The translations under genes and the position numbers were made by a program. Positions 1 through 46,627 of a DNA stretch of 46,627 nucleotides are shown here, piece by piece; the stretch's first letter is position 1; every line of letters begins with the position of its first letter. Source of the stretch: a virus (lineage: Duplodnaviria; Heunggongvirae; Uroviricota; Caudoviricetes); IMG/VR virus record IMGVR_UViG_2541047706_000005, positions 1 through 46,627 of that record. One strand, given 5' to 3'. The notes under the pieces were generated by a model, which was given only the letters and a program-made list of their open reading frames with translations, ran no database searches and had not been told where the DNA came from.

Positions 1-1284
1 TTACTTCTTCGCCTCTGCAACCACTTTACTACCCACGCCGCGGTTATTGTATTCCCACATGCGGTTGTAGTTAGTGTCATTCAGATTGCGCTGTATTTCG
101 TCGTTATCATCTACGCTGCCGGTATTACCCGCAAACGGACGATTAGAGATCACCGCATCGGCCCACGGTTTAGCCGTGTTAAAACCTTCGTTGATGGCGC
201 TATCACGGATCACCACCTGACCGTTGGTATTGGCATCAACATCCAGCGAGCGGCCCAGTTGCGCCACACCATCACCGAAAGCATTGAAACGGCTGTTTAC
301 GGCGAGGAAACCGTAGTAAATGTTGGACAGCGTAGCCGGTGCAAACACATACGCTTCTTGCTGAGTACGTGAGTTCACCACGCGGAATTCGGTGTTATCG
401 AACACCACTGCGCCGCGACCAGAAACGATATCCACATCCCCTTCAATGTAGCTGTTGGTCACCAGCGTACGCGGCTGACGATTCGTTTCCAGACGGTTCT
501 GCACACCGCTGTTGGTGACAAAGAAGGTGTTCTGACGACCGAGAATGTTAACGTTGTTAATCTGTACCTGGTCACCATCAGTACGCAGTGCCACCGCCGG
601 ATGGTTACCTGCATCTACGCTATCGCCCAGCGTGTTTTCGATGGTCAGATTTTGCAGTTGCAGGCCATTGTTTTGTGACCAGAAGACCGCAGAGCAGAGA
701 ACACCGATACTGTCGCTGCGTTTGCTCTGGCAGCTATCGTACATATACCACGCTGGTTTACCTGGCATATATTTGCCGCGCGGGTTGACGTCGTGACGCC
801 AGTCGGCAGGGCTCATGCCACCATCAAGGGAAAGCCCAATCTTCACATCAATCGGTTTTTCACCTGTACCGTACAGAGTAATTCCACCCGGAGCGGCAGG
901 GACATATACCGTTCCCTGATACTCACCAGGCATCACGGCAATATACTGGCGCTTGTTGGTACGCTTGATAATTGCCGCATCTACCGCCGCCTGAATCGTG
1001 GTATGCGTTACACCTTGAGTGCCCGCCGGGCCGACAACAAAGTCAGGTTGCGCAGGCAGGGTAATCGGGGAAGGATTCCACGCTGCTGCACCTGGTGTCA
1101 GGGATGCAAAATAGTGTTGAGCATCGAAATTCTGCGCTTCTTTTGCCGACAGAATCGGGCGAGAAGAGGTACCAGGCGCGGTTTGATCAGAAGGACGTTG
1201 ATCGGGCGGGGTTGAGCTACAGGCGGTCAGCGTCACGCCAAAAGCCAATGCCAGCGCCAGACGGGAAACTGAAAATGTGTTCAC
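1..1284 (-). CDS. ybhC: Host pectinesterase-family outer-membrane lipoprotein (YbhC-like), flanking the prophage
   Basis: 427-aa ORF with signal peptide and lipobox (LTAC); recognised as YbhC-like from memory; sits immediately outside the att core. Confidence 0.75.
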   Translation of the reverse strand: MNTFSVSRLALALAFGVTLTACSSTPPDQRPSDQTAPGTSSRPILSAKEAQNFDAQHYFASLTPGAAAWNPSPITLPAQPDFVVGPAGTQGVTHTTIQAAVDAAIIKRTNKRQYIAVMPGEYQGTVYVPAAPGGITLYGTGEKPIDVKIGLSLDGGMSPADWRHDVNPRGKYMPGKPAWYMYDSCQSKRSDSIGVLCSAVFWSQNNGLQLQNLTIENTLGDSVDAGNHPAVALRTDGDQVQINNVNILGRQNTFFVTNSGVQNRLETNRQPRTLVTNSYIEGDVDIVSGRGAVVFDNTEFRVVNSRTQQEAYVFAPATLSNIYYGFLAVNSRFNAFGDGVAQLGRSLDVDANTNGQVVIRDSAINEGFNTAKPWADAVISNRPFAGNTGSVDDNDEIQRNLNDTNYNRMWEYNNRGVGSKVVAEAKK

Positions 1285-1330
1285 AGGTTGCTCCGGGCTA
1301 TGAAATAGAAAAATGAATCCGTTGAAGCCT

Positions 1331-1345
1331 GCTTTTTTATACTAA
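1331..1345. other. Lambda-type attachment-site core (prophage-host junction)
   Basis: Exact 15-bp GCTTTTTTATACTAA core read directly, between ybhC and int. Confidence 0.8.
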
Positions 1346-1418
1346 GTTGGCATTATAAAAAAGCATTGCTTATCAATTTGTTGCAACTAACAGGTCACTA
1401 TCAGTCAAAATAAAATCA

Positions 1419-2489
1419 TTATTTGATTTCAATTTTGTCCCACTCCCTGCCTCTGTCATCACGATACTGTGATGCCATGGTGTCCGACTTATGCCCGAGA
1501 AGATGTTGAGCAAACTTATCGCTTATCTGCTTCTCATAGAGTCTTGCAGACAAACTGCGCAACTCGTGAAAGGTAGGCGGATCCCCTTCGAAGGAAAGAC
1601 CTGATGCTTTTCGTGCGCGCATAAAATACCTTGATACTGTGCCGGATGAAAGCGGTTCACGACGAGTAGATGCAATTATGGTTTCTCCGCCAAGAATCTT
1701 TTTGCATTTATCAAGTGTTTCCTTCATTGATATCCCGAGAGCATCAACATGCAATGCTGTTGGGATGGCAATTTTTACGCCTGTTTTGCTTTGCTCGACA
1801 TAAAGATATCCATCTACGATATCAGACCACTTCATTTCGCATAAATCACCAACTCGCTGCCCGGTAACAACAGCCAGTTCCATTGCAAGTCTTAGCCAAC
1901 ATGGTGATGATTCTGCTGCTTGATAAATTTTTAGGTATTCGTCAGCTGTAAGTCTTGATCTCCTTACCTCTGATTTTGCTGCGCGAGTGGCAGCGACCGG
2001 GTTTGTTGTTATATGGCCTTCAGCTATTGCCTCTCGGAATGCATCGCTCAGTGTTGATCTGATTAACTTGGCTGACGCCGCCTTGCCCTCGTCTATGTAT
2101 CCATTGAGCATTGCCGCAATTTCTTTTGTGGTGATGTCTTCAAGTGGAGCATCAGGCAGACCCCTCCTTATTGCTTTAATTTTGCTCATGTAATTTATGA
2201 GTGTCTTCTGCTTGATTCCTCTGCTGGCGAGGATTTTTTCGTAGCGATCAAGCCATGAATGTAACGTAACAGAATTATCACTGTTGATTCTCGCTGTCAG
2301 AGGCTTGTGTTTGTGTCCTGAAAATAACTCAATGTTGGCCTGTATAGCTTCAGTGATTGCGATTCGCCTGTCTCGGCCTAATCCGAACTCTTTACCCGTC
2401 CTTGGGTCCCTGTAGCAGTAATATCCATTGTTTCTTATATAAAGGTTAGGGGGTAAATCCCGGCGCTCATGACTTCGCCTTCTTCCCAT
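1419..2489 (-). CDS. int: Lambda integrase (tyrosine recombinase)
   Basis: 356-aa translation recognised as lambda Int (MGRRRSHERRDLPPNLYIRNNGYY...); overlaps xis as in lambda. Confidence 0.97.
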   Translation of the reverse strand: MGRRRSHERRDLPPNLYIRNNGYYCYRDPRTGKEFGLGRDRRIAITEAIQANIELFSGHKHKPLTARINSDNSVTLHSWLDRYEKILASRGIKQKTLINYMSKIKAIRRGLPDAPLEDITTKEIAAMLNGYIDEGKAASAKLIRSTLSDAFREAIAEGHITTNPVAATRAAKSEVRRSRLTADEYLKIYQAAESSPCWLRLAMELAVVTGQRVGDLCEMKWSDIVDGYLYVEQSKTGVKIAIPTALHVDALGISMKETLDKCKKILGGETIIASTRREPLSSGTVSRYFMRARKASGLSFEGDPPTFHELRSLSARLYEKQISDKFAQHLLGHKSDTMASQYRDDRGREWDKIEIK

Positions 2490-2685
2490 TTCTGATCCTC
2501 TTCAAAAGGCTACCTGTTACTGGTCGATTTAAGTCAACCTTTACCGCTGATTCGTGGAACAGATACTCTCTTCCATCCTTAACCGGAGGAGGGAATATCC
2601 TGCATTCGCGCACCCATCGACGAACTGTTTCAAGGCTTCTTGGGCGCCGCTGGCGTGCGTTCCACTCCTGAAGTGTTAAGTACAT
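2467..2685 (-). CDS. xis: Lambda excisionase
   Basis: 72-aa translation MYLTLQEWNARQRRPRSLETVRRW... recognised as lambda Xis. Confidence 0.95.
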   Translation of the reverse strand: MYLTLQEWNARQRRPRSLETVRRWVRECRIFPPPVKDGREYLFHESAVKVDLNRPVTGSLLKRIRNGKKAKS

Positions 2686-2714
2686 CGCAAAGTCTCCGCA
2701 ATTACACGCAAGAA

Positions 2715-2737
2715 AAAACCGCCATCAGGCGGTTTGG
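2715..2737. terminator. Hairpin plus T/A tracts (possible bidirectional terminator) downstream of a small leftward ORF
   Basis: aaaaaaccgccatcaggcggttt: GC stem ccgcc/ggcgg flanked by A-run and T-run. Confidence 0.45.
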
Positions 2738-2892
2738 TGTTCTTTCAGTTCTTCAATTCGAAGATTTGTTACGCCTGCATGCGCTATCTGCGCCCATATC
2801 ATCCAGTGGTTATAGCAGTCGTTGATGTCCTCTGCTTCGATAACCCTGTTGAATGGTTCTCCATTCCATTCACCTGTGACTCGGAAGTACAT
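2725..2892 (-). CDS. Small hypothetical protein (about 55 aa), below the ORF-track length cut-off
   Basis: Hand-translated minus-strand ORF MYFRVTGEWNGEPFNRV... ending just before the hairpin; coordinates approximate. Confidence 0.3.
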   Translation of the reverse strand: MYFRVTGEWNGEPFNRVIEAEDINDCYNHWMIWAQIAHAGVTNLRIEELKEHQTA

Positions 2893-3050
2893 TTATCATC
2901 TCCATAAAACAAAACCCGCCGTAGCGAGTTCAGATAAAAGAAATCCCCGCGAGTGCGAGGATTGTTATTGTCTTTTCTTCGTGCATTTGTCGCACTTTCG
3001 GCACCATCCAGATAGGCACATCCGTCCGCAATTAACACATATAGGCCACA

Positions 3051-4988: not shown

Positions 4989-5443
4989 GCTGCACCTCCT
5001 TCGCGAAGCTGAGTGGCGAATTCATTAAGCTCAGCTAACAATTCATCAGCCCACTGAGCCGCTCTGCTTGCGTAGAGCATCTCCACACCCTGCGCCCGGA
5101 CTTCAGCCAGGAAAGCATCGGTGGCTGGGGTGTCTGATTGCAGAGACTTTGCGCGATAGTCATTCCACCCTCTTGCATACATGGGATTAACTTGCACTCC
5201 ATCTTTTACGCAATATGCCTGACCTCCACGGTTGATAACCTTGATTTCGTCCATAGCGCCAGACTTCAGCCCCGCATTCTCCGCCGCCAGCGCCGCGCAC
5301 TTGGCCTCCGCTTCAGCAAATTTACGCACCAGATATTCAGCGTTTGTTTCGTTAACCTTTAAATCACTTGGAATGCATTTACCTTTCAGAAATCCATCCA
5401 TCTCAATTAGTGACATTTGTTTCATTTTTTCCCACTCCGCCAC
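4985..5443 (-). CDS. Hypothetical protein (152 aa)
   Basis: ORF track; stop/start coupled with neighbours. Confidence 0.5.
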
Positions 5444-8007: not shown

Positions 8008-8631
8008 CTATGCGGACTCGGAAGGAAGTCCAATCATCTTATTCAAATCTTCTACCCGTAAAGCAGGAAGTGCTGTACTTGCTTTGTCTGCTTCTTTTGG
8101 TAGCAATTCTTTGCTTTCAGGCCAAACTTCAATAAGTCGCTTAACTGTTGTGACTGAGTTCAAAGCAGCCCATACATTTGATTCGATATCCTTTTTCTTG
8201 GCTTCAAGTTTTTGTTGCAATGCGCAGATTTCATCAAACCTTTTTGTTATTTCGTGTTCTGCATCAAACATGCATTTATCTTTGGTTGGAGTAGGGAGCA
8301 ATATATCTTCGCCGTTGCCGTCTTTCCCATATGAATGCCATCCAACCCTTCTGCCAGATACAGTCAGATAAATTGAAGTAGAACGAACATCGTATGAGTA
8401 AAATGAACATCCCATCTTTTCAAGTTCTTCACTTATAGCTACTAACCTGGATGATAACTGATCCACTTCCTCAGTTTTCTTTTTACCGCCAAACGCAATA
8501 ACTCTGGCGTCAAGTGCAAGCTGGTTCTTTAACTTTGTTACTTCTTCAAGTTCAGTGAAAACCCCAGACTTAATTAAAGCGTTACGAGCGATTTTCTCTT
8601 TCATTCTCGTAGTTAAGCGGATTGATGACAT
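8008..8631 (-). CDS. Hypothetical accessory protein (about 207 aa) immediately downstream of N
   Basis: ORF-track frame 8008..8691, start taken at internal MSSIRLTT; no recognisable family. Confidence 0.5.
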   Translation of the reverse strand: MSSIRLTTRMKEKIARNALIKSGVFTELEEVTKLKNQLALDARVIAFGGKKKTEEVDQLSSRLVAISEELEKMGCSFYSYDVRSTSIYLTVSGRRVGWHSYGKDGNGEDILLPTPTKDKCMFDAEHEITKRFDEICALQQKLEAKKKDIESNVWAALNSVTTVKRLIEVWPESKELLPKEADKASTALPALRVEDLNKMIGLPSESA

Positions 8632-8692
8632 ATTAATTCCTCTCAAATAAGTGGTTTGCTGCCTAATTTTATTTTCTGGCGACCAACACAAG

Positions 8693-9745: not shown

Positions 9746-10648
9746 TTATGACTCACTTTGTTCTGAGAAGGGGAATGAAGACAGAACAAGAACCTGTCGA
9801 TTTGTCTTATACATGTATTCATTAATGACGTTGTGCAGATTTTTTAACGCCATGCTAAAATCTTTGTCGTATGTAAAGTCTTCTACTTTAATTCTTAAGT
9901 CATTGATAAGAGTATTTATTCCTATCGTTCTTCCGTGAGAATGCCACTTTCCGTTGTCACTAAGAGCGGTAGCGATCATTTTAGCTCTTGCTTCTTTTTC
10001 CCTCTTGGAAACTAGCTTTCCTCGTTTTGTGTTACCTTGATGAACCGTCCACTCTCTGAATTTATACTCTACAAGCCACTTCTTAAGCAAGTCTATTGAT
10101 AGCTCTCTGGCTTGCTCGTATCTCCTTAAGTGCGCAAGATCTAACTGACTAAGCATCATTAGTTCAGCTTGGGTAATGGTTCCTTCTCTGGATTTAGTAA
10201 TCATTTCTTCAACTTTATCAAGGTATCCCAAAGCAGGAACCCATTTACCGTCAGAGGATTGCACTTGAGGGTCAATGGGGCCTAATGAAGAAGCATAGTT
10301 CATGTAAATTTTATCTCCAGACATACACCATATTGTGCCTGCCGACATGGCCATATCTGGAATGATAAAATATACCTCTTGATAGAAATGCCTTGTAATT
10401 TCTACCATTTTTTCCACAGACTCAACAGAGCCACCATTTGTATTGAGTATAATAACTAGAAATCTATTGGTACGACTGTTAGCCATCTCCCCAATAGCCT
10501 CAAGTTTTGGTTGGTAAACTTCTTTTGACCATGGAAAGATACCACCGTAGTACGCTATGACGTCGCAGCTTGGGAAAAAGTTATTTTTAAATTGCTCTAA
10601 CTGCCAAGAAATGTATGTTTCTAGTGTTGAATCAAGATTTTGGCTCAT
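9746..10648 (-). CDS. ClpP-fold serine-peptidase-like protein (S49/SDH-type) in the rexAB position
   Basis: ILNTNGGSVES and PDMAMSAGTIWCMSGDKIYMNYASSLGPIDPQ align by eye with ClpP INSPGG and QAASMGA...PNSRVMIHQP blocks; directly downstream of cI on the same strand. Confidence 0.7.
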   Translation of the reverse strand: MSQNLDSTLETYISWQLEQFKNNFFPSCDVIAYYGGIFPWSKEVYQPKLEAIGEMANSRTNRFLVIILNTNGGSVESVEKMVEITRHFYQEVYFIIPDMAMSAGTIWCMSGDKIYMNYASSLGPIDPQVQSSDGKWVPALGYLDKVEEMITKSREGTITQAELMMLSQLDLAHLRRYEQARELSIDLLKKWLVEYKFREWTVHQGNTKRGKLVSKREKEARAKMIATALSDNGKWHSHGRTIGINTLINDLRIKVEDFTYDKDFSMALKNLHNVINEYMYKTNRQVLVLSSFPFSEQSES

Positions 10649-15649: not shown

Positions 15650-15768
15650 TGACGCGATGATTTATCCGGGGCTATATTCCCAGCACGCCAGCAAAATCTG
15701 GCGTCGGGATTGGCGTCCCGGATAGAGACCGCGACAGACACACGCCGCGAGCGTGTTTTTTTATTGTC
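15650..15768 (+). ncRNA. Candidate small structured RNA (promoter-like element, three hairpins, terminator)
   Basis: TTGACG-17-CTATAT, then stems acgccag/ctggcgt and cggga/tcccg, ending in acacgc-cgcga-gcgtgt plus T7; no ORF. Confidence 0.3.
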
Positions 15769-15923
15769 GAATGCACGCGCACATCTGAATTATGGTGGGC
15801 TGTGTGGGGGCGGAGAGATCCGCGCCGGTCGGTTTCCCGGTTACGCCAACCCTGCACAGTTCACCACCAGACGATTGGCGTCGTCGGTGGTGAGTTATTT
15901 AGAAACCACTCGAGGGCGTCATT

Positions 15924-16604
15924 ATGACAACTCAAATCTCTGTTGAAACTCTCTCCCCGATCACCCATAACCAGATTCCTGTTATCACCACCGAACTTTT
16001 GGCGCAGCTTTATGACACAGAAATTCTGAATATCCAGGTTAACTTCACCAGAAATAAAGAGCGTTTTGTCGAAGGAAAGCACTTTTTTAAAGCAGTGGGT
16101 GAAGAATTAAAAAATTTGCGACTTACTTTAAGTAAGTCACAAAATCCCATCTCTCCCAAAACCCGCTCCCTCATCCTCTGGACAGAACGCGGCGCAGCCC
16201 GTCACGCCAAAATGCTCGAAACCGATCAGGCGTGGGATGTGTTCGAAAAACTGGAAGACTGCTATTTCAGCCAGTGCGAGAAAAATACTGGCAAACAAGA
16301 GAAGAAGCTCAACGGGCTTTCCGCAAAAGAAACAGACAGCCTTGTATGGCTATGGGATTATGCCAACCGCTCACAGGCATTATTCCGCGAACTGTATCCG
16401 GCGCTAAAACAAATTCAATCGAACTATTCCGGCAGATGCTACGACTACGGTCATGAGTTCTCGTATGTTATTGGAATGGCGAGAGACGTTTTAATCAATC
16501 ACACACGAGATGTTGATATTAATGAGCCAGACGGACCAACGAATCTTTCCGCATGGGTAAGGCTTAAGAACAAAGAATTACCTCCTTCACTGCATCGCTA
16601 CTGA
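15924..16604 (+). CDS. ORF6N-domain protein (antirepressor/Roi-like)
   Basis: N-terminal [38 protein letters not shown] resembles the ORF6N domain as remembered. Confidence 0.6.
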
Positions 16605-16672: not shown

Positions 16673-17401
16673 ATGACAATGAACGAGCTGATAAATAGCA
16701 ACGTCATCAAAATGACTAGCATTGAAATCGCTGAGCTTACAGGTAAGCGTCATGACAATGTGAAACGAACCATCGAAACGCTGGCTAAAAATGGTGTTAT
16801 CCGGCTTCCTCAAATTGAGGATTGTGGAAGAATCAATGGGTTAGGATTAAATCAAAGTTTTTGTGTGTATGTATTCGAAGGCGAACAAGGAAAGCGAGAC
16901 AGTATTGTCGTTGTAGCCCAGTTGTCGCCAGAGTTCACCGCTCGCCTTGTTGACCGCTGGCGAGAGCTTGAAGAAGCTGCGGTTAATATCCCCAAAACGC
17001 TACCGGAAGCGTTGCGCCTTGCTGCTGATCTTGCTGAGCAGAAAATGCAGCTGGAAAACCAGCTCGCAATTGCCGCACCTAAAGTTGAGTTTGCCGATCG
17101 CGTTGGCGAGGCCAGCGGAATTTTGATTGGAAACTTTGCAAAGGTTGTCGGTATTGGCCAAAACAAACTGTTTGCATGGATGCGCGATCACAAAATCCTT
17201 ATTGCTTCAGGTTCCCGGCGCAATGTGCCAATGCAGGAATATATGGATCGCGGCTATTTCACAGTGAAAGAAACAGCGGTCAACACAAATCACGGAATAC
17301 AGATATCGTTCACCACAAAAATCACCGGGCGTGGTCAACAGTGGCTGACCAGAAAGCTGCTCGATAACGGAATGCTGAAAGTAACAGGGGAGGCTGCTTA
17401 A
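16673..17401 (+). CDS. Rha-family regulatory protein with KilA-C-type antirepressor domain
   Basis: N-terminal SIEIAELTGKRHDNVKRTIETL (Rha-like) plus C-terminal domain typical of phage antirepressors. Confidence 0.6.
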   Translation: MTMNELINSNVIKMTSIEIAELTGKRHDNVKRTIETLAKNGVIRLPQIEDCGRINGLGLNQSFCVYVFEGEQGKRDSIVVVAQLSPEFTARLVDRWRELEEAAVNIPKTLPEALRLAADLAEQKMQLENQLAIAAPKVEFADRVGEASGILIGNFAKVVGIGQNKLFAWMRDHKILIASGSRRNVPMQEYMDRGYFTVKETAVNTNHGIQISFTTKITGRGQQWLTRKLLDNGMLKVTGEAA

Positions 17402-19507: not shown

Positions 19508-19582
19508 GGGTCAGTCGTATAAAGGTCATTACGGAAGGCTGTTAACCTTCTTATCGTGGTTCGAGTCCACGCTGTCCCGCCA
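19508..19582 (+). tRNA. tRNA-like gene, anticodon GTT (Asn) by hand folding; non-canonical acceptor/D-arm
   Basis: T-arm cgtgg-ttcgagt-ccacg, anticodon stem gaagg/ccttc with loop ctGTTaa, 3' gcca; one acceptor mismatch. Confidence 0.5.
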
Positions 19583-19587
19583 AACAT

Positions 19588-19663
19588 GCTGTTTTAGCTC
19601 CAATGGTAGAGCGGTCGCCTTGTAAGCGAATGGGTAGCGGTTCAAGTCCGTTAAACAGCACCA
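19588..19663 (+). tRNA. tRNA-like gene, anticodon TGT (Thr) by hand folding
   Basis: Acceptor gctgttt/aaacagc, D-arm gctc-caatggta-gagc, loop ctTGTaa, T-arm agcgg-ttcaagt-ccgtt, 3' ACCA. Confidence 0.6.
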
Positions 19664-23226: not shown

Positions 23227-24642
23227 ATGAACGAAGATGATATCGCAATCGGCAGTTGCTCGCCGGAGCTGATCACGCTCCTGGACAGCGATGACATTCA
23301 GCCGGGTATGTCGGCTGGCTATCAGACCTGCAAAACGATTTACCTCTTCCACCCGTTGGGCGGGAAAATGGTAGATCGCCCGATCAAGATGGCGATGAAC
23401 GAGTCGCGCACGGTTCACATTTCGCAGGCGTATGGCATTGAGCAGCGTCTCCGCGATGCATTTGAGCGGGAGTGGAAAGCACTGGGCGCCGATAAGCACA
23501 TCGCTAATGCGGCGCGCATCTCTCGCATTTACGGTGTTTCGGCGATCGCAATGCTGGTTGATAACCAGGAACCGTCCTCTGCGGTGGACTACCGCACGCT
23601 GTATAAGCATAACGTGACATTCAACATTCTCGACCCGCTGAACACTGCCGGAAGCATCGTCCTGAACCAGGATCCGAACGCGCAGGACTTCCAGAAGGTC
23701 GACGGGATCAGAGTGGCGGGCAAGCCGTATCACAAATCCCGCTGCGTCGTGCAACAGAACGAGGACCCGATTTATCTGGCCTATAACTCTGCGGCCTTTG
23801 GCTTTACCGGACGCAGCGTTTACCAGCGCGCTCTGTTCCCGCTGAAATCCTTCATCCAGACCATGCGCACCGATGACATGGTTTCCGTGAAGGGTGGCTT
23901 GCTGGTAACGAAGATTCAGGGACCGAGCTCAGTCGTCAACAACATGATGCAAAAGCTCAGCGGCATCAAACGAATGATGCTGAAGCGAGGGAAGACAGGC
24001 GAAGTCCTGCAGATCGGCGCAAATGACAGCATCGAATCCATCGACCTGAGCAACCTGGAAAAGCCGCTCGACTCCTCCCGGAATCACATTCTGGAGAATA
24101 TCGCTGCGGCAGCTGACATGCCGGCTATCATTCTGAACTCGGAAACATTCGCCCAGGGCTTCGGCGAGGGGACGGAAGACGCTCGATCTGTTGCAGTCTA
24201 CATCGACAACATCCGCGAGTGGCTTGAGCCGCTGTATGACTATTTCATCCGTATTTGCCAGTATCGCGCCTGGAGCATTGAGTTTTTCAATTCTCTGCGT
24301 GCTGACTTCCCGGAGCTTAAAAACACGTACAGCCTGTATTTCTCCTCATGGATTAACAACTTCGAATATCGCTGGCCGTCATCCCTGAAAGAGCCGGAAA
24401 GCGAAAAAGTGAAGGTCGACGAAATCCGCTTTAAGGCCATCGTCAGCATGCTGGAAGTCCTTCTCCCGCAGGTCAACACGGATGATGAGAACCGCGCGCT
24501 TCTTATCGAGTGGGCGCAGACCAACGCGAACGCTAACGAAAGCCTGTTCCCGCAGCGACTTGATCTCGATATCGACTCGTTAAAGGCTAACCGGCCTGAA
24601 CAGCCACGGGATGAAGAGCCCGGCGGCGGGATGATGCTATGA
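23227..24642 (+). CDS. Portal protein (putative)
   Basis: 471 aa, gene order after terminase; no motif-level confirmation. Confidence 0.6.
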   Translation: MNEDDIAIGSCSPELITLLDSDDIQPGMSAGYQTCKTIYLFHPLGGKMVDRPIKMAMNESRTVHISQAYGIEQRLRDAFEREWKALGADKHIANAARISRIYGVSAIAMLVDNQEPSSAVDYRTLYKHNVTFNILDPLNTAGSIVLNQDPNAQDFQKVDGIRVAGKPYHKSRCVVQQNEDPIYLAYNSAAFGFTGRSVYQRALFPLKSFIQTMRTDDMVSVKGGLLVTKIQGPSSVVNNMMQKLSGIKRMMLKRGKTGEVLQIGANDSIESIDLSNLEKPLDSSRNHILENIAAAADMPAIILNSETFAQGFGEGTEDARSVAVYIDNIREWLEPLYDYFIRICQYRAWSIEFFNSLRADFPELKNTYSLYFSSWINNFEYRWPSSLKEPESEKVKVDEIRFKAIVSMLEVLLPQVNTDDENRALLIEWAQTNANANESLFPQRLDLDIDSLKANRPEQPRDEEPGGGMML

Positions 24643-25469: not shown

Positions 25470-27086
<1,617 letters not shown>

Positions 27087-27101: not shown

Positions 27102-27962
27102 ATGGCTAATTTATCTCTTAACCCGATGGCGACCACGAATGCCGCTGGTTCCTTCGGTGTGCAGTCTGATGGCTTCATTCAGGGCGTTGCTCTGGATGAT
27201 CCGGCAAATCGCTTTAACCTGGCGTCCGGCACTGTCGCCGCCACCGAAACCAAACCGCTGTGGGGTGGCCTGCCGGTTGCCGAGTTGCTTCCCGGCGTTA
27301 ACTCCAGTCCTCGCGGGTCGACTATTCGTCGCGCTGCGTCACTGGCTGAGCTCGAAGGCTTCACCGTCTTCAACCAGGCTCACAACGGGCTTACTACTCC
27401 GCAATCACCGGTTCCGCTGTATGCGTCCGGCATGAGCGTTTCATTCTATCGCCTTGGCTCCAACATGCGCGTGCCGCTGAAAGCGTCAGCGCAGGTGGTC
27501 GCGCTGGGAACCGCTGGCGCATCGGTGAAAACGCCGCTGGCGTGGGACTTCGTCAATAACCAGGTGACCACCGCAGCGGCGGCGGCTTTTGCCGGTGCTA
27601 ACATTGCCACCACTGCCGTGACTTACTCGAACGGCGTGGCTACCGCCACCACCGCATCCGCACATGGGCTGACTGCTGGCCAGTACGTGAAGATCAGCGG
27701 CGTAGATCCGGCTGCCTATAACGGCACCGTCGTTGTGCTGAGCGTACCGAGTACGACAACCTTCACCTATGCGCCTGCCAGCGCGCCGGGCGGCTCCGCG
27801 ACCACGCAGGGCACTATCGGCGCTGTGGCTCAGGCAGACATCACCCTGCCGGTGAAAGTCATCTCCATCGAGAGTGGGAACTCTAAAACTGTCAGCTATG
27901 ACAGCGCTACGGGCTTCCTTACCTGGAACAACACCGACAGCTGCGCGCTGGTCTTACTTTAA
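27102..27962 (+). CDS. Head structural protein with Ig-like module (decoration or capsid-associated)
   Basis: Between scaffold and capsid genes; contains AHGLTAGQYVKISGVDPAAYNG...FTY module. Confidence 0.5.
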   Translation: MANLSLNPMATTNAAGSFGVQSDGFIQGVALDDPANRFNLASGTVAATETKPLWGGLPVAELLPGVNSSPRGSTIRRAASLAELEGFTVFNQAHNGLTTPQSPVPLYASGMSVSFYRLGSNMRVPLKASAQVVALGTAGASVKTPLAWDFVNNQVTTAAAAAFAGANIATTAVTYSNGVATATTASAHGLTAGQYVKISGVDPAAYNGTVVVLSVPSTTTFTYAPASAPGGSATTQGTIGAVAQADITLPVKVISIESGNSKTVSYDSATGFLTWNNTDSCALVLL

Positions 27963-38429: not shown

Positions 38430-38758
38430 GAACCTATGGCCGAAACTCTGAGGGGAAGTGGGTCCTGGTGGAAACCGACGAATATGGGTTTAATGACTCG
38501 GTGTATTTAACCACCCTGATCCAGAATCTGAAACTGGCGCCGCAGGAGTCGCCCTTTTACGCAAATAACGGAATCCCGGCCGCCGGGTCGGTGATCCAGC
38601 AAATCCTGCCGACGTATTACGTAAACCGTATTCAAAAACAGTTCAGCCAGTATTTTTCCTCGCTACAGATTGCGCTGATCAGCGACGACCCGCCTGTTTA
38701 TAACATCTCGGCAATCACAAACGCAGGTTCAAAAATAATTACACAGGTGGCCGTATGA
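38426..38758 (+). CDS. Small baseplate protein (GpW-like position)
   Basis: 110 aa preceding the J-like gene. Confidence 0.4.
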   Translation: MRTYGRNSEGKWVLVETDEYGFNDSVYLTTLIQNLKLAPQESPFYANNGIPAAGSVIQQILPTYYVNRIQKQFSQYFSSLQIALISDDPPVYNISAITNAGSKIITQVAV

Positions 38759-40173
38759 GCGATTTACCAGTCAGCTATACGTCAGCAGGCCCGGTTCCTC
38801 TGACGCCGGAAGAGCTAAGAGCACAGCTCGTTTCTCAGGCAATTGCGCTATCTCCGGGACTCACAACTGATTTGCCTGGATCTCTGATTGAGGACGTGGC
38901 CAGTACCGATGTCGGCGCGCTCATCGTTTGTGATCAAGCAAGGGTTGACCTGATTAACTCGGTGGGGCCACTAAAGGCTAACCTGGCCATGCTGGAGCTT
39001 CTCGCACAGCAGGCTGGTATCCCTGGGCAGAAAACGGCTGGCACAACAACAGTCCCGGTTCAGTTTTCCGGCCCCGCGGGATTTGTTATCCCACAGGGGT
39101 TTATTGTTTCTGATGGGACCTATACCTATTCAGTCAGTGATGCGACGATTATCTCGTCGTCTGGAGTATCTGCCAGCGTATCATGCGAGGGAACGGAGAC
39201 CGGGACCTGGGCGGTGCCGGTAAATACGGTTAACCAGATCATATCCAGTCTACCGTCTGACGTCACCATCACCTGCACCAACCCGATCGCCGGCACTCCG
39301 GGTGCTGACCCGGAAACGAACTATCAGTTTCGTGATCGCGTATGGCAGGCGCAGATGGCCACCGTTCAGGGATATCCTGGATTTATCCGGCAATATCTCA
39401 CCAGCCTTGATAACGTGCAGGCGCGCCTGGTTTCTGTCATTCAGGACGGGGATAAATGGATAGTCATGTGTGCCGGCGGTGATATTTACGATATTGCTGG
39501 CGCGCTCTATAAGTCTGCGGGGGATATCAGCCGGCTGAAAGGGTGTTCACTGAACGTAACGGGGATCACGAATGCAAATCCTGGTGTCGTCAGCACAGAC
39601 CTGACTCATGGTTACACTGACGGCCAGGTTATCCGGATCACTGGCGTTACCGGGATGACGGGTATTAATGACGTCCCTCTGACCGTGACGGTACTGTCTC
39701 CTCACACGTTTTCCATCGGGATTGACACCACGTCATCCGGGACCTGGGGAGGCGGCGGCGAGGTGACACCGAACGTCAGAAACAATACCGTGACGGTGAA
39801 TGACTGGCCTGATAACTACGTGATCCCGTTCGTGACGCCATTGCTGCAGCGGGTCACTGTGACGTATCAGTGGGGGACAGAAAGTGTTAACTACCTGACA
39901 GATGCCACGGTCGCCTCTCTGGTCTCGGCGCCTACGATTCAGTATGTGAACGGCATATTCGCCGGGAAACCGCTGAACGTTAACAACCTGAAAGACGCAT
40001 TTTTGCAGGCGATTAACTCGACAATCGACATGGGGCTGATCAGCACTCTAAACGTCGTGGTCACCATCAATGGTGTGATAACGCCACCGGATGCCGGGAC
40101 GAATATCATCAGCGGCGATAAGTTCAGTTATTTTTATATCGCGTCGGATGGCGTGATCGTAACAGGGGCGTAG
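38755..40173 (+). CDS. Baseplate J-like protein with Ig-like module
   Basis: 472 aa; contains THGYTDGQVIRITGVTGMTGINDVPLTVTVLSPHTFSI module. Confidence 0.5.
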   Translation: MSDLPVSYTSAGPVPLTPEELRAQLVSQAIALSPGLTTDLPGSLIEDVASTDVGALIVCDQARVDLINSVGPLKANLAMLELLAQQAGIPGQKTAGTTTVPVQFSGPAGFVIPQGFIVSDGTYTYSVSDATIISSSGVSASVSCEGTETGTWAVPVNTVNQIISSLPSDVTITCTNPIAGTPGADPETNYQFRDRVWQAQMATVQGYPGFIRQYLTSLDNVQARLVSVIQDGDKWIVMCAGGDIYDIAGALYKSAGDISRLKGCSLNVTGITNANPGVVSTDLTHGYTDGQVIRITGVTGMTGINDVPLTVTVLSPHTFSIGIDTTSSGTWGGGGEVTPNVRNNTVTVNDWPDNYVIPFVTPLLQRVTVTYQWGTESVNYLTDATVASLVSAPTIQYVNGIFAGKPLNVNNLKDAFLQAINSTIDMGLISTLNVVVTINGVITPPDAGTNIISGDKFSYFYIASDGVIVTGA

Positions 40174-45595: not shown

Positions 45596-46627
45596 ATGGC
45601 GATGAAGCTATTAGCCAATAATAACGCAAAGAGTGTTCTCGCTGCGGGTATTAGCGCGTCCGCTACCGTTATTACCGTGGGTACTGGAGCGGGGTCTTTA
45701 TTCCCGTCCCCTGTATCTGGGCAGAGTTATTTCAAATTAACGATAACCGACGCGGCCACGAAAACAATTTCTGAAATTATGCACGTCACGTCTGTATCCG
45801 GTGACGTGATGACAGTAATTCGTGGTCAGGAAGGAACTACGGCACGCGTATGGTCAACGAATGACATTGTCGCGAATTTAATGACCGCCGGATCATTGTT
45901 GTCGTTCCTGCAGATCAGCAATAACCTGTCAGAAATTAAAGATGCCGGTGAGGATGCGATAAATGAAGCCCGTTATAACCTCGGAATATCTGATTCCTCT
46001 GGTTTTGTCGGGCGTTCACTTGGCGCTCCAAAAGCTTTCTATGCAAACGGAACCTATACGCGATCTCCTCTGGCCCGTTATGCAAAAGTAACGTTGACCG
46101 GTGCCGGTGGCGGCGGTGGCGGCTGCCAGGCCTCCAACAATACAGAAACCTTCTCCGGTGCTGGCGGCGGCGCGGGCGCGACCATTATCGTATGGGTTGA
46201 CCTGTCTGCTGCCAGTTCTTATGCGATTACTGTCGGCAAGGGTGGTAAGGGCGGAGTTGGCGCAGTAAGTGGTGCGGATGGTGGGGCCACCTCGTTTGCC
46301 AGCCTGTTCTCAGCTCCTGGCGGGAAAGGAGGAGTGAAGTCAGGCGTGTCCAATACCGCCGGCGGCGCCGGAGGTACGGCGGCGACCGGAGATATCAGGA
46401 TCAACGGTGGTACCGGCTCAGATGGACAGACAGGCTCAAGCCTTCTGACGGGCAACGGCGGGGCGTCGTATTTTGGCGGCGGTGGCCGGGCGGGTTCTCA
46501 GGCCGGTATTGCTGGCGCAGCTCCCGGATCCGGTGGTGGTGGCGCGTATGACCTTGGGTTTACCGGTACGGCATTTACCGGTGGTGATGGTGCTACTGGC
46601 ATGGCGATCGTGGAAGAATTCGCGTAA
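45596..46627 (+). CDS. Second tail-fibre protein (paralogous N-terminus, Gly-rich C-terminal domain)
   Basis: N-terminal about 100 aa alignable with the first fibre; C-terminus rich in GGxGG repeats. Confidence 0.65.
   Translation: MAMKLLANNNAKSVLAAGISASATVITVGTGAGSLFPSPVSGQSYFKLTITDAATKTISEIMHVTSVSGDVMTVIRGQEGTTARVWSTNDIVANLMTAGSLLSFLQISNNLSEIKDAGEDAINEARYNLGISDSSGFVGRSLGAPKAFYANGTYTRSPLARYAKVTLTGAGGGGGGCQASNNTETFSGAGGGAGATIIVWVDLSAASSYAITVGKGGKGGVGAVSGADGGATSFASLFSAPGGKGGVKSGVSNTAGGAGGTAATGDIRINGGTGSDGQTGSSLLTGNGGASYFGGGGRAGSQAGIAGAAPGSGGGGAYDLGFTGTAFTGGDGATGMAIVEEFA

Follow-up and report, generated by a model that had tools for sequence, protein, structure and literature searches.

The window, by which we mean the whole 46,627-nt stretch of DNA analysed, opens with two genes read from the minus strand, ybhC and a lambda-type int, and the 134-nt spacer that separates them, which is exactly the ybhC-int intergenic region, holds the 15-bp common core of the lambda attachment site (Table 1). 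The first open reading frame had been named ybhC in an earlier note made from the letters alone, and the name proved right: its product is identical to that of K-12 b0772 at 427/427 residues, matches Pfam Pectinesterase, and is called ybhC in all of the E. coli matches listed.

Int is identical to lambda Int at 353/356 residues, the differences being H164P, I248V and E264K, while Xis is identical to lambda Xis at 71/72 residues (G59S); at the DNA level the identities are 1057/1071 for int and 212/219 for xis. The proteins are of the lambda type, but the term "lambda-identical" in the earlier note slightly overstates an identity of 99%. Int comprises the Pfam domains Arm-DNA-bind_1 (the lambda arm-binding domain) and Phage_integrase, and Xis matches Pfam Exc (E = 3.9e-41). 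Residues R212, K235, H308, R311, H333 and Y342, the catalytic residues of lambda Int, are all present. This exact Int protein is listed in 702 blocks of a public collection, and it adjoins ybhC in all 10 of the loci that were read.

Table 1. Features of the window and of the adjoining attR core. Sites labelled predicted are those that we take to be present from consensus matches; positions beyond 46,627 continue the numbering of the window into the matching scaffold.
Feature	Position	Strand	Remarks
ybhC	1-1284	-	host gene; outer-membrane lipoprotein, pectinesterase-like domain; gal-side flank of attB
B arm, host half of attL	1285-1330	+	same sequence as K-12 attB on this side of the core
B core-type Int site CTGCTTTTT	1329-1337		predicted; begins in the B arm
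Common core O GCTTTTTTATACTAA	1331-1345	+	exact; unique in the window; holds the 7-bp overlap TTTATAC
C' core-type Int site ACTAAGTTG	1341-1349		predicted
P' arm, phage half of attL	1346-1422	+	lambda-type
IHF site H' TATCAATTTGTTG	1371-1383		predicted
Int arm-type site P'1 AGGTCACTAT	1392-1401		predicted
Int arm-type site P'2 CAGTCAAAAT	1402-1411		predicted
Int arm-type site P'3 AAATCATTAT	1413-1422		predicted; overlaps the int stop codon
int	1419-2489	-	lambda-type tyrosine integrase
xis	2467-2685	-	excisionase; overlaps the int start
Nmad5 gene	8008-8691	-	nucleotide-modification-associated protein (Pfam)
ClpP-like gene	9746-10648	-	SDH-type serine protease (Pfam)
isrK, C4 antisense RNA and a1/b1 target element	15672-15871	+	Rfam: isrK 77 bits, C4 antisense RNA 67 bits
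Ant-type anti-repressor ORF	15924-16604
Ant-type anti-repressor ORF	16673-17401
tRNA-Asn(GTT)	19508-19582	+
tRNA-Thr(TGT)	19588-19663	+
Chronis-like virion module	21140-44640	+
Portal gene	23227-24642	+	PHROG phrog_146, Pfam Phage_portal_3
NUDIX-protease fusion gene	25473-27086	+	537 aa
Baseplate J gene	38755-40173	+
Last prophage gene	45596-46627	+	glycine-rich tail-fibre-like protein; PHROG tail fibre families, Pfam Gly_rich_2
Second core, in attR	46928-46942		exact; retrieved locus 5333-5347

The attL junction

We read the junction from a three-way alignment of the window with K-12 attB and lambda attP. The core corresponds base for base to the misc_recomb feature at lambda 27724-27738 and to the K-12 core at NC_000913.3 807328-807342, so the exact copy that had been placed between ybhC and int is indeed there. 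In megablast searches, similarity to phage genomes begins exactly at base 1331, which is lambda 27724 and the first base of the annotated recombination core. No further copy was found within the 46,627-nt window when up to 2 mismatches were allowed, and the expectation for an exact match is ~8e-5 given the base composition, 46.6 kb and both strands. Because the core is accompanied by flanks that match attB on one side and attP on the other, its occurrence here is not a matter of chance.

Strand exchange takes place in the 7-bp overlap within the core. The Int and IHF sites around it were predicted from published consensus sequences (core-type CAACTTNNT, arm-type C/AAGTCACTAT and IHF WATCAANNNNTTR; Table 1).

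To the right of the core, positions 1346-1418 are identical to the lambda P' arm (27739-27811) at 72/73 positions. The sole change is a G to T substitution at window position 1388 (lambda 27781), which lies between H' and P'1 and outside the consensus site motifs. The lambda att core had been called intact, and this holds; the P' arm carries the one substitution. The same G to T change was seen in 10/10 retrieved loci that encode the same exact Int allele, one of which is the scaffold of this prophage itself (KE699144.1), and we therefore regard it as a natural and common allele.

The attR end and the attachment site of the phage

The stop codon of the last prophage gene closes the window, which leaves no room in it for attR. 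We therefore turned to KE699144.1 (GCA_000456525.1), a 2.3-Mb scaffold within which the junction lies and of which the window represents positions 246762-293388; the match rests on both ends, which were placed by exact-protein look-ups and agree at every base compared (5,489 nt on the left, 5,032 nt on the right), and on an interval length of 46,627 nt. A second exact core, which the earlier note had expected at the far end, was found on this scaffold 301 nt past the end of the window. It is part of an attR of the composition P-O-B', in which a lambda-like P arm, the core and the K-12 B' arm are followed by ybhB and bioA, and the core-to-core distance is 45,597 bp.

When the prophage was removed in silico, a single one of the 1,945 nt of the product differed from the K-12 empty site, and the 151-nt intergenic region showed no difference. 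Since the empty site is restored, the insertion was precise and only the 15-bp core was duplicated. Both junctions have the composition expected of conservative Int-mediated recombination between a lambda-type attP and attB, in agreement with the earlier proposal of integration at the classical lambda attB. From these comparisons of sequence, positions 1285-1422 almost certainly represent the attL (B-O-P') of a complete 45.6-kb mosaic lambdoid prophage inserted at the classical attB(lambda), between ybhC and ybhB. For annotation, the left edge of the prophage can be set at base 1331, and its right edge is predicted to lie 301 nt past the end of the window.

A side observation concerns sequencing run SRR785022, whose Logan contig 122 (26 kb) stops exactly at the last base of the attR core (locus position 5347). 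One candidate reading is that the sample held both P-O-B' and P-O-P', the latter from excised or tandem phage DNA, in which case a de Bruijn graph would branch at this point. A DUF551 protein used to seek the attL-side contig of SRR785022 was present in the GCA_000456525.1 assembly only.

On the attR side, homology to lambda begins ~190 nt before the core, with the sib/tI hairpin as its left limit. This hairpin starts 110 nt past the window end (virtual window position 46737; retrieved locus 5142-5190) and is conserved apart from one extra A in the loop. Its stability by direct folding is -25.0 kcal/mol, compared with -24.3 kcal/mol in lambda, although a consensus terminator scan of the attR side did not report it. 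Further along the P arm, P1, H1, P2 and X1 are conserved, while the stretch from X1 to the core, including the X2/Fis region, differs from lambda at ~25 positions.

Joining the P arm, the core and the P' arm yields a 310-nt attP that occurs as one contiguous sequence in phages OZ035745 and OZ035751 (99.4% identity) and is 90-93% identical to the attP of 434, HK106, ev099, Huey and others. An eight-way alignment of attP sequences showed no variation in the sib hairpin, in the motifs P1, H1, P2 and X1, in the TTGATA core of H2, in the 15-bp core or in C', H', P'1 and P'2, and P'3 varies only by one T to C change in PDP110P2. Variation is concentrated between X1 and the core, where laboratory lambda is often the outlier, and the reconstituted attP of the KE699144.1 prophage has a single substitution in the degenerate X2/Fis stretch. 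The lambda-type attP of this prophage is thus one of the ordinary alleles that occur in nature. Given the P-arm differences, the cooperativity of Xis and Fis could differ from that in lambda, and the X2/Fis segment could confer a different dependence of excision on Xis and Fis; however, the P-arm variant is shared by other isolated phages.

By analogy with lambda, integration would have involved Int bound to P'1-P'3 and to the core sites, IHF bound at H', and crossover within TTTATAC. Upon induction, Int, Xis, IHF and Fis would be expected to recombine attL with attR and so release a circular genome with a reconstituted attP. In the integrated state, int is parted from the sib/tI hairpin, which now lies at the attR end; if lambda is a guide, this relocation of sib should disable retroregulation, and the int-xis mRNA derived from pL should be stabilised during induction.

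Gene content of the prophage

PHROG and Pfam scans, together with Rfam and tRNA searches, revealed a gene set that looks like that of a complete lambdoid phage. The early genes run in the order Erf-type recombinase, N-like antiterminator, CI-type repressor, Cro and CII, followed by an O-like initiator, a DnaC-like loader, NinB, the c4/isrK antisense RNA and two Ant anti-repressors, and then by RusA, a NinI-like phosphatase, a Q-like antiterminator, two tRNAs, a holin and an endolysin. Downstream of the endolysin gene, at the position of a spanin, lies an ORF of 155 aa that is annotated as "lysis protein" in a relative from E. coli ST540. The virion genes follow in the order small and large terminase, portal, NUDIX-protease fusion, capsid, tail sheath, tube, tape measure with a transglycosylase domain, Baseplate J, SGNH-type tail spike and glycine-rich fibre.

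Several individual genes merit description. Among the leftward early genes, the interval from CI to the recombination genes contains two that may be moron or defence-related cargo: a ClpP-like gene between the CI and N-like genes, and an Nmad5 gene immediately downstream of the N-like gene. The isrK/C4 element lies directly upstream of the two Ant-type ORFs, an array that looks like a P1/P7-style c4-ant switch within the nin region of a lambdoid prophage. The two tRNA genes lie between the Q-like and holin genes, and the Klebsiella phage vB_Kpn_Chronis has a tRNA-Asn gene at the equivalent place. The portal gene, assigned by both PHROG and Pfam, goes by the name "anti-CBASS protein Acb1 family" in RefSeq relatives, a name that is probably misleading. 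Between the portal and capsid genes, the fusion protein has a NUDIX domain at its N terminus and also a region that matches the head-maturation protease and DUF2213 families, and the Baseplate J protein contains an inserted domain that matches ubiquitin-activating enzyme E1 FCCH (Pfam E = 4e-14).

The gene content bears on whether the junction might be an orphan attL, left behind by a decayed cryptic prophage that can no longer excise. Such a remnant would be in keeping with the one core copy in the window, and the N gene of the related ST540 prophage is annotated as a partial pseudogene. However, the N-like ORF here is full length (127 aa), the regulatory, replication, lysis and virion genes are all open frames, the catalytic residues of Int are intact, and the matching scaffold has an intact attR complete with exact core, P arm and sib hairpin. 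We consider a remnant of this kind very unlikely.

It could also be argued that a different recombinase or a secondary site was used and that the lambda-like int and att are a passenger fragment gained by recombination, since the prophage is highly mosaic and Chronis, the type member of the family to which its virion module belongs, uses a DUF4102-domain integrase. Yet PHROG scans of ~30 of the larger ORFs revealed no second integrase, the prophage begins and ends exactly at the lambda core, the host arms are those of K-12 attB, and there is no other duplication, so that we attach next to no weight to this explanation. A prophage integrated by lambda-type Int at attB(lambda) remains our reading of the locus.

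Frequency of the junction and relation to known phages

Counting genomes with at least 80% coverage of window positions 1-3000, we found ybhC, int and xis contiguous in 1,824 of 5,426 complete E. coli genomes, or about a third. A chance AT-rich 15-mer or an artefact, whether contamination by the attL of a Gateway vector or an assembly chimera, was considered because the core is AT-rich and laboratory vectors carry lambda attL, but this reading is effectively refuted by the minute expected number of matches, by flanks that match attB over 46 nt and attP over 73 nt, by the position of the junction inside a scaffold of megabase length, and by the recurrence of the same arrangement in those complete genomes.

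The Chronis-like virion module is rarer than the junction, being present in 37 genomes at a coverage of at least 80%, mostly in prophages elsewhere on the chromosome. NZ_LT838200.1 is a case in point, with the module at 1.43 Mb but the ybhC junction at 3.23 Mb. At the ybhC site itself the module was seen only in ST540 and KE699144.1.

The attL described here is an ordinary, textbook junction at a textbook site and was already known. The lambda site beside ybhC is in the literature (PMC11893012), a P22-like phage has been described that integrates upstream of ybhC (bioRxiv 10.64898/2026.05.19.726188), and our literature search gave no sign of an unusual feature at the junction. All that is mildly new is that, in E. 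coli, a virion module of the Felixviridae type goes together with the lambda integration cassette. The locus shows that this cassette travels with unrelated virion modules, in this case a Felixviridae-type myovirus module for which descriptions otherwise come mainly from Klebsiella.

In K-12 lysogens, lambda attL (BOP') has the same core and B arm as the prophage, occupies the same site (ybhC / ybhB) and has the same orientation, with int beside ybhC. Compared with the lambda reference for attP, Int, Xis and sib (J02459 27534-29078), the sib/tI hairpin is on the P-arm side in both. The two differ in that the prophage has an Erf-type recombinase, a DnaC-like loader, a different Q and a contractile-tail virion module. 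Lambda structural genes gave no megablast match in the late region, and in place of the A-J genes and non-contractile tail that characterise a Lambdavirus virion there are a tail sheath and baseplate, within a module ~95% identical to that of Chronis, in line with the earlier statement that the morphogenesis genes are non-lambda.

The only Lambdavirus record matched by the late region is PDP110P1, and this match is confined to the last ~4.5 kb, which contains the tail-fibre genes. These ~4.5 kb are common to the prophage and to both PDP110P1 (OZ035751) and PDP110P2 (OZ035745), with 98% identity. The PDP110 phages, like 434, HK106, ev099 and Huey, otherwise have lambda- or HK97-like siphovirus virion modules (Lambdavirus, Wanchaivirus, Radostvirus).

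A close relative is the prophage of E. coli ST540 (NZ_CP007391.1 3144.1-3189.6 kb), which has the same ybhC-ybhB site, orientation and arrangement of attL and attR, and whose virion module is likewise of the Felixviridae type (98.4% identity over 85% of the late half). It differs in its early-region cassettes, which include a Rad52-type recombinase and a DnaB-like helicase, and in having another tail spike and a slightly different P-arm spacer.

The family Felixviridae dates from 2025, and Chronis (Chronisvirus chronis; MN013086) is the type species of its genus Chronisvirus (PMC12451628). From terminase to baseplate, the virion module of Chronis is ~95% identical in nucleotide sequence over 81% of window positions 21700-46627 and has the same gene order; the late region also matches RothC and RothD. 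The prophage thus has the virion module shared within Felixviridae (Maevirinae), whereas its early half is a patchwork of HK97/HK106-type segments and matches phages of that type instead. Chronis itself has a DUF4102-domain integrase with its own excisionase, is without lambda int, xis and attP, and also differs in its early region and tail spike. The integration cassette sib-attP-int-xis is a lambda-type module and is combined here with early genes like those of HK97/HK106 and with contractile-tail virion genes of the Felixviridae type, which is ordinary modular mosaicism. We lean towards the view that the prophage is an E. coli representative of Felixviridae whose DUF4102-domain integrase was replaced by the complete lambda sib-attP-int-xis cassette together with a lambdoid early region. 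If this is true, the locus documents that whole integration cassettes are exchanged across phage families as well as between the lineages of Klebsiella and E. coli.
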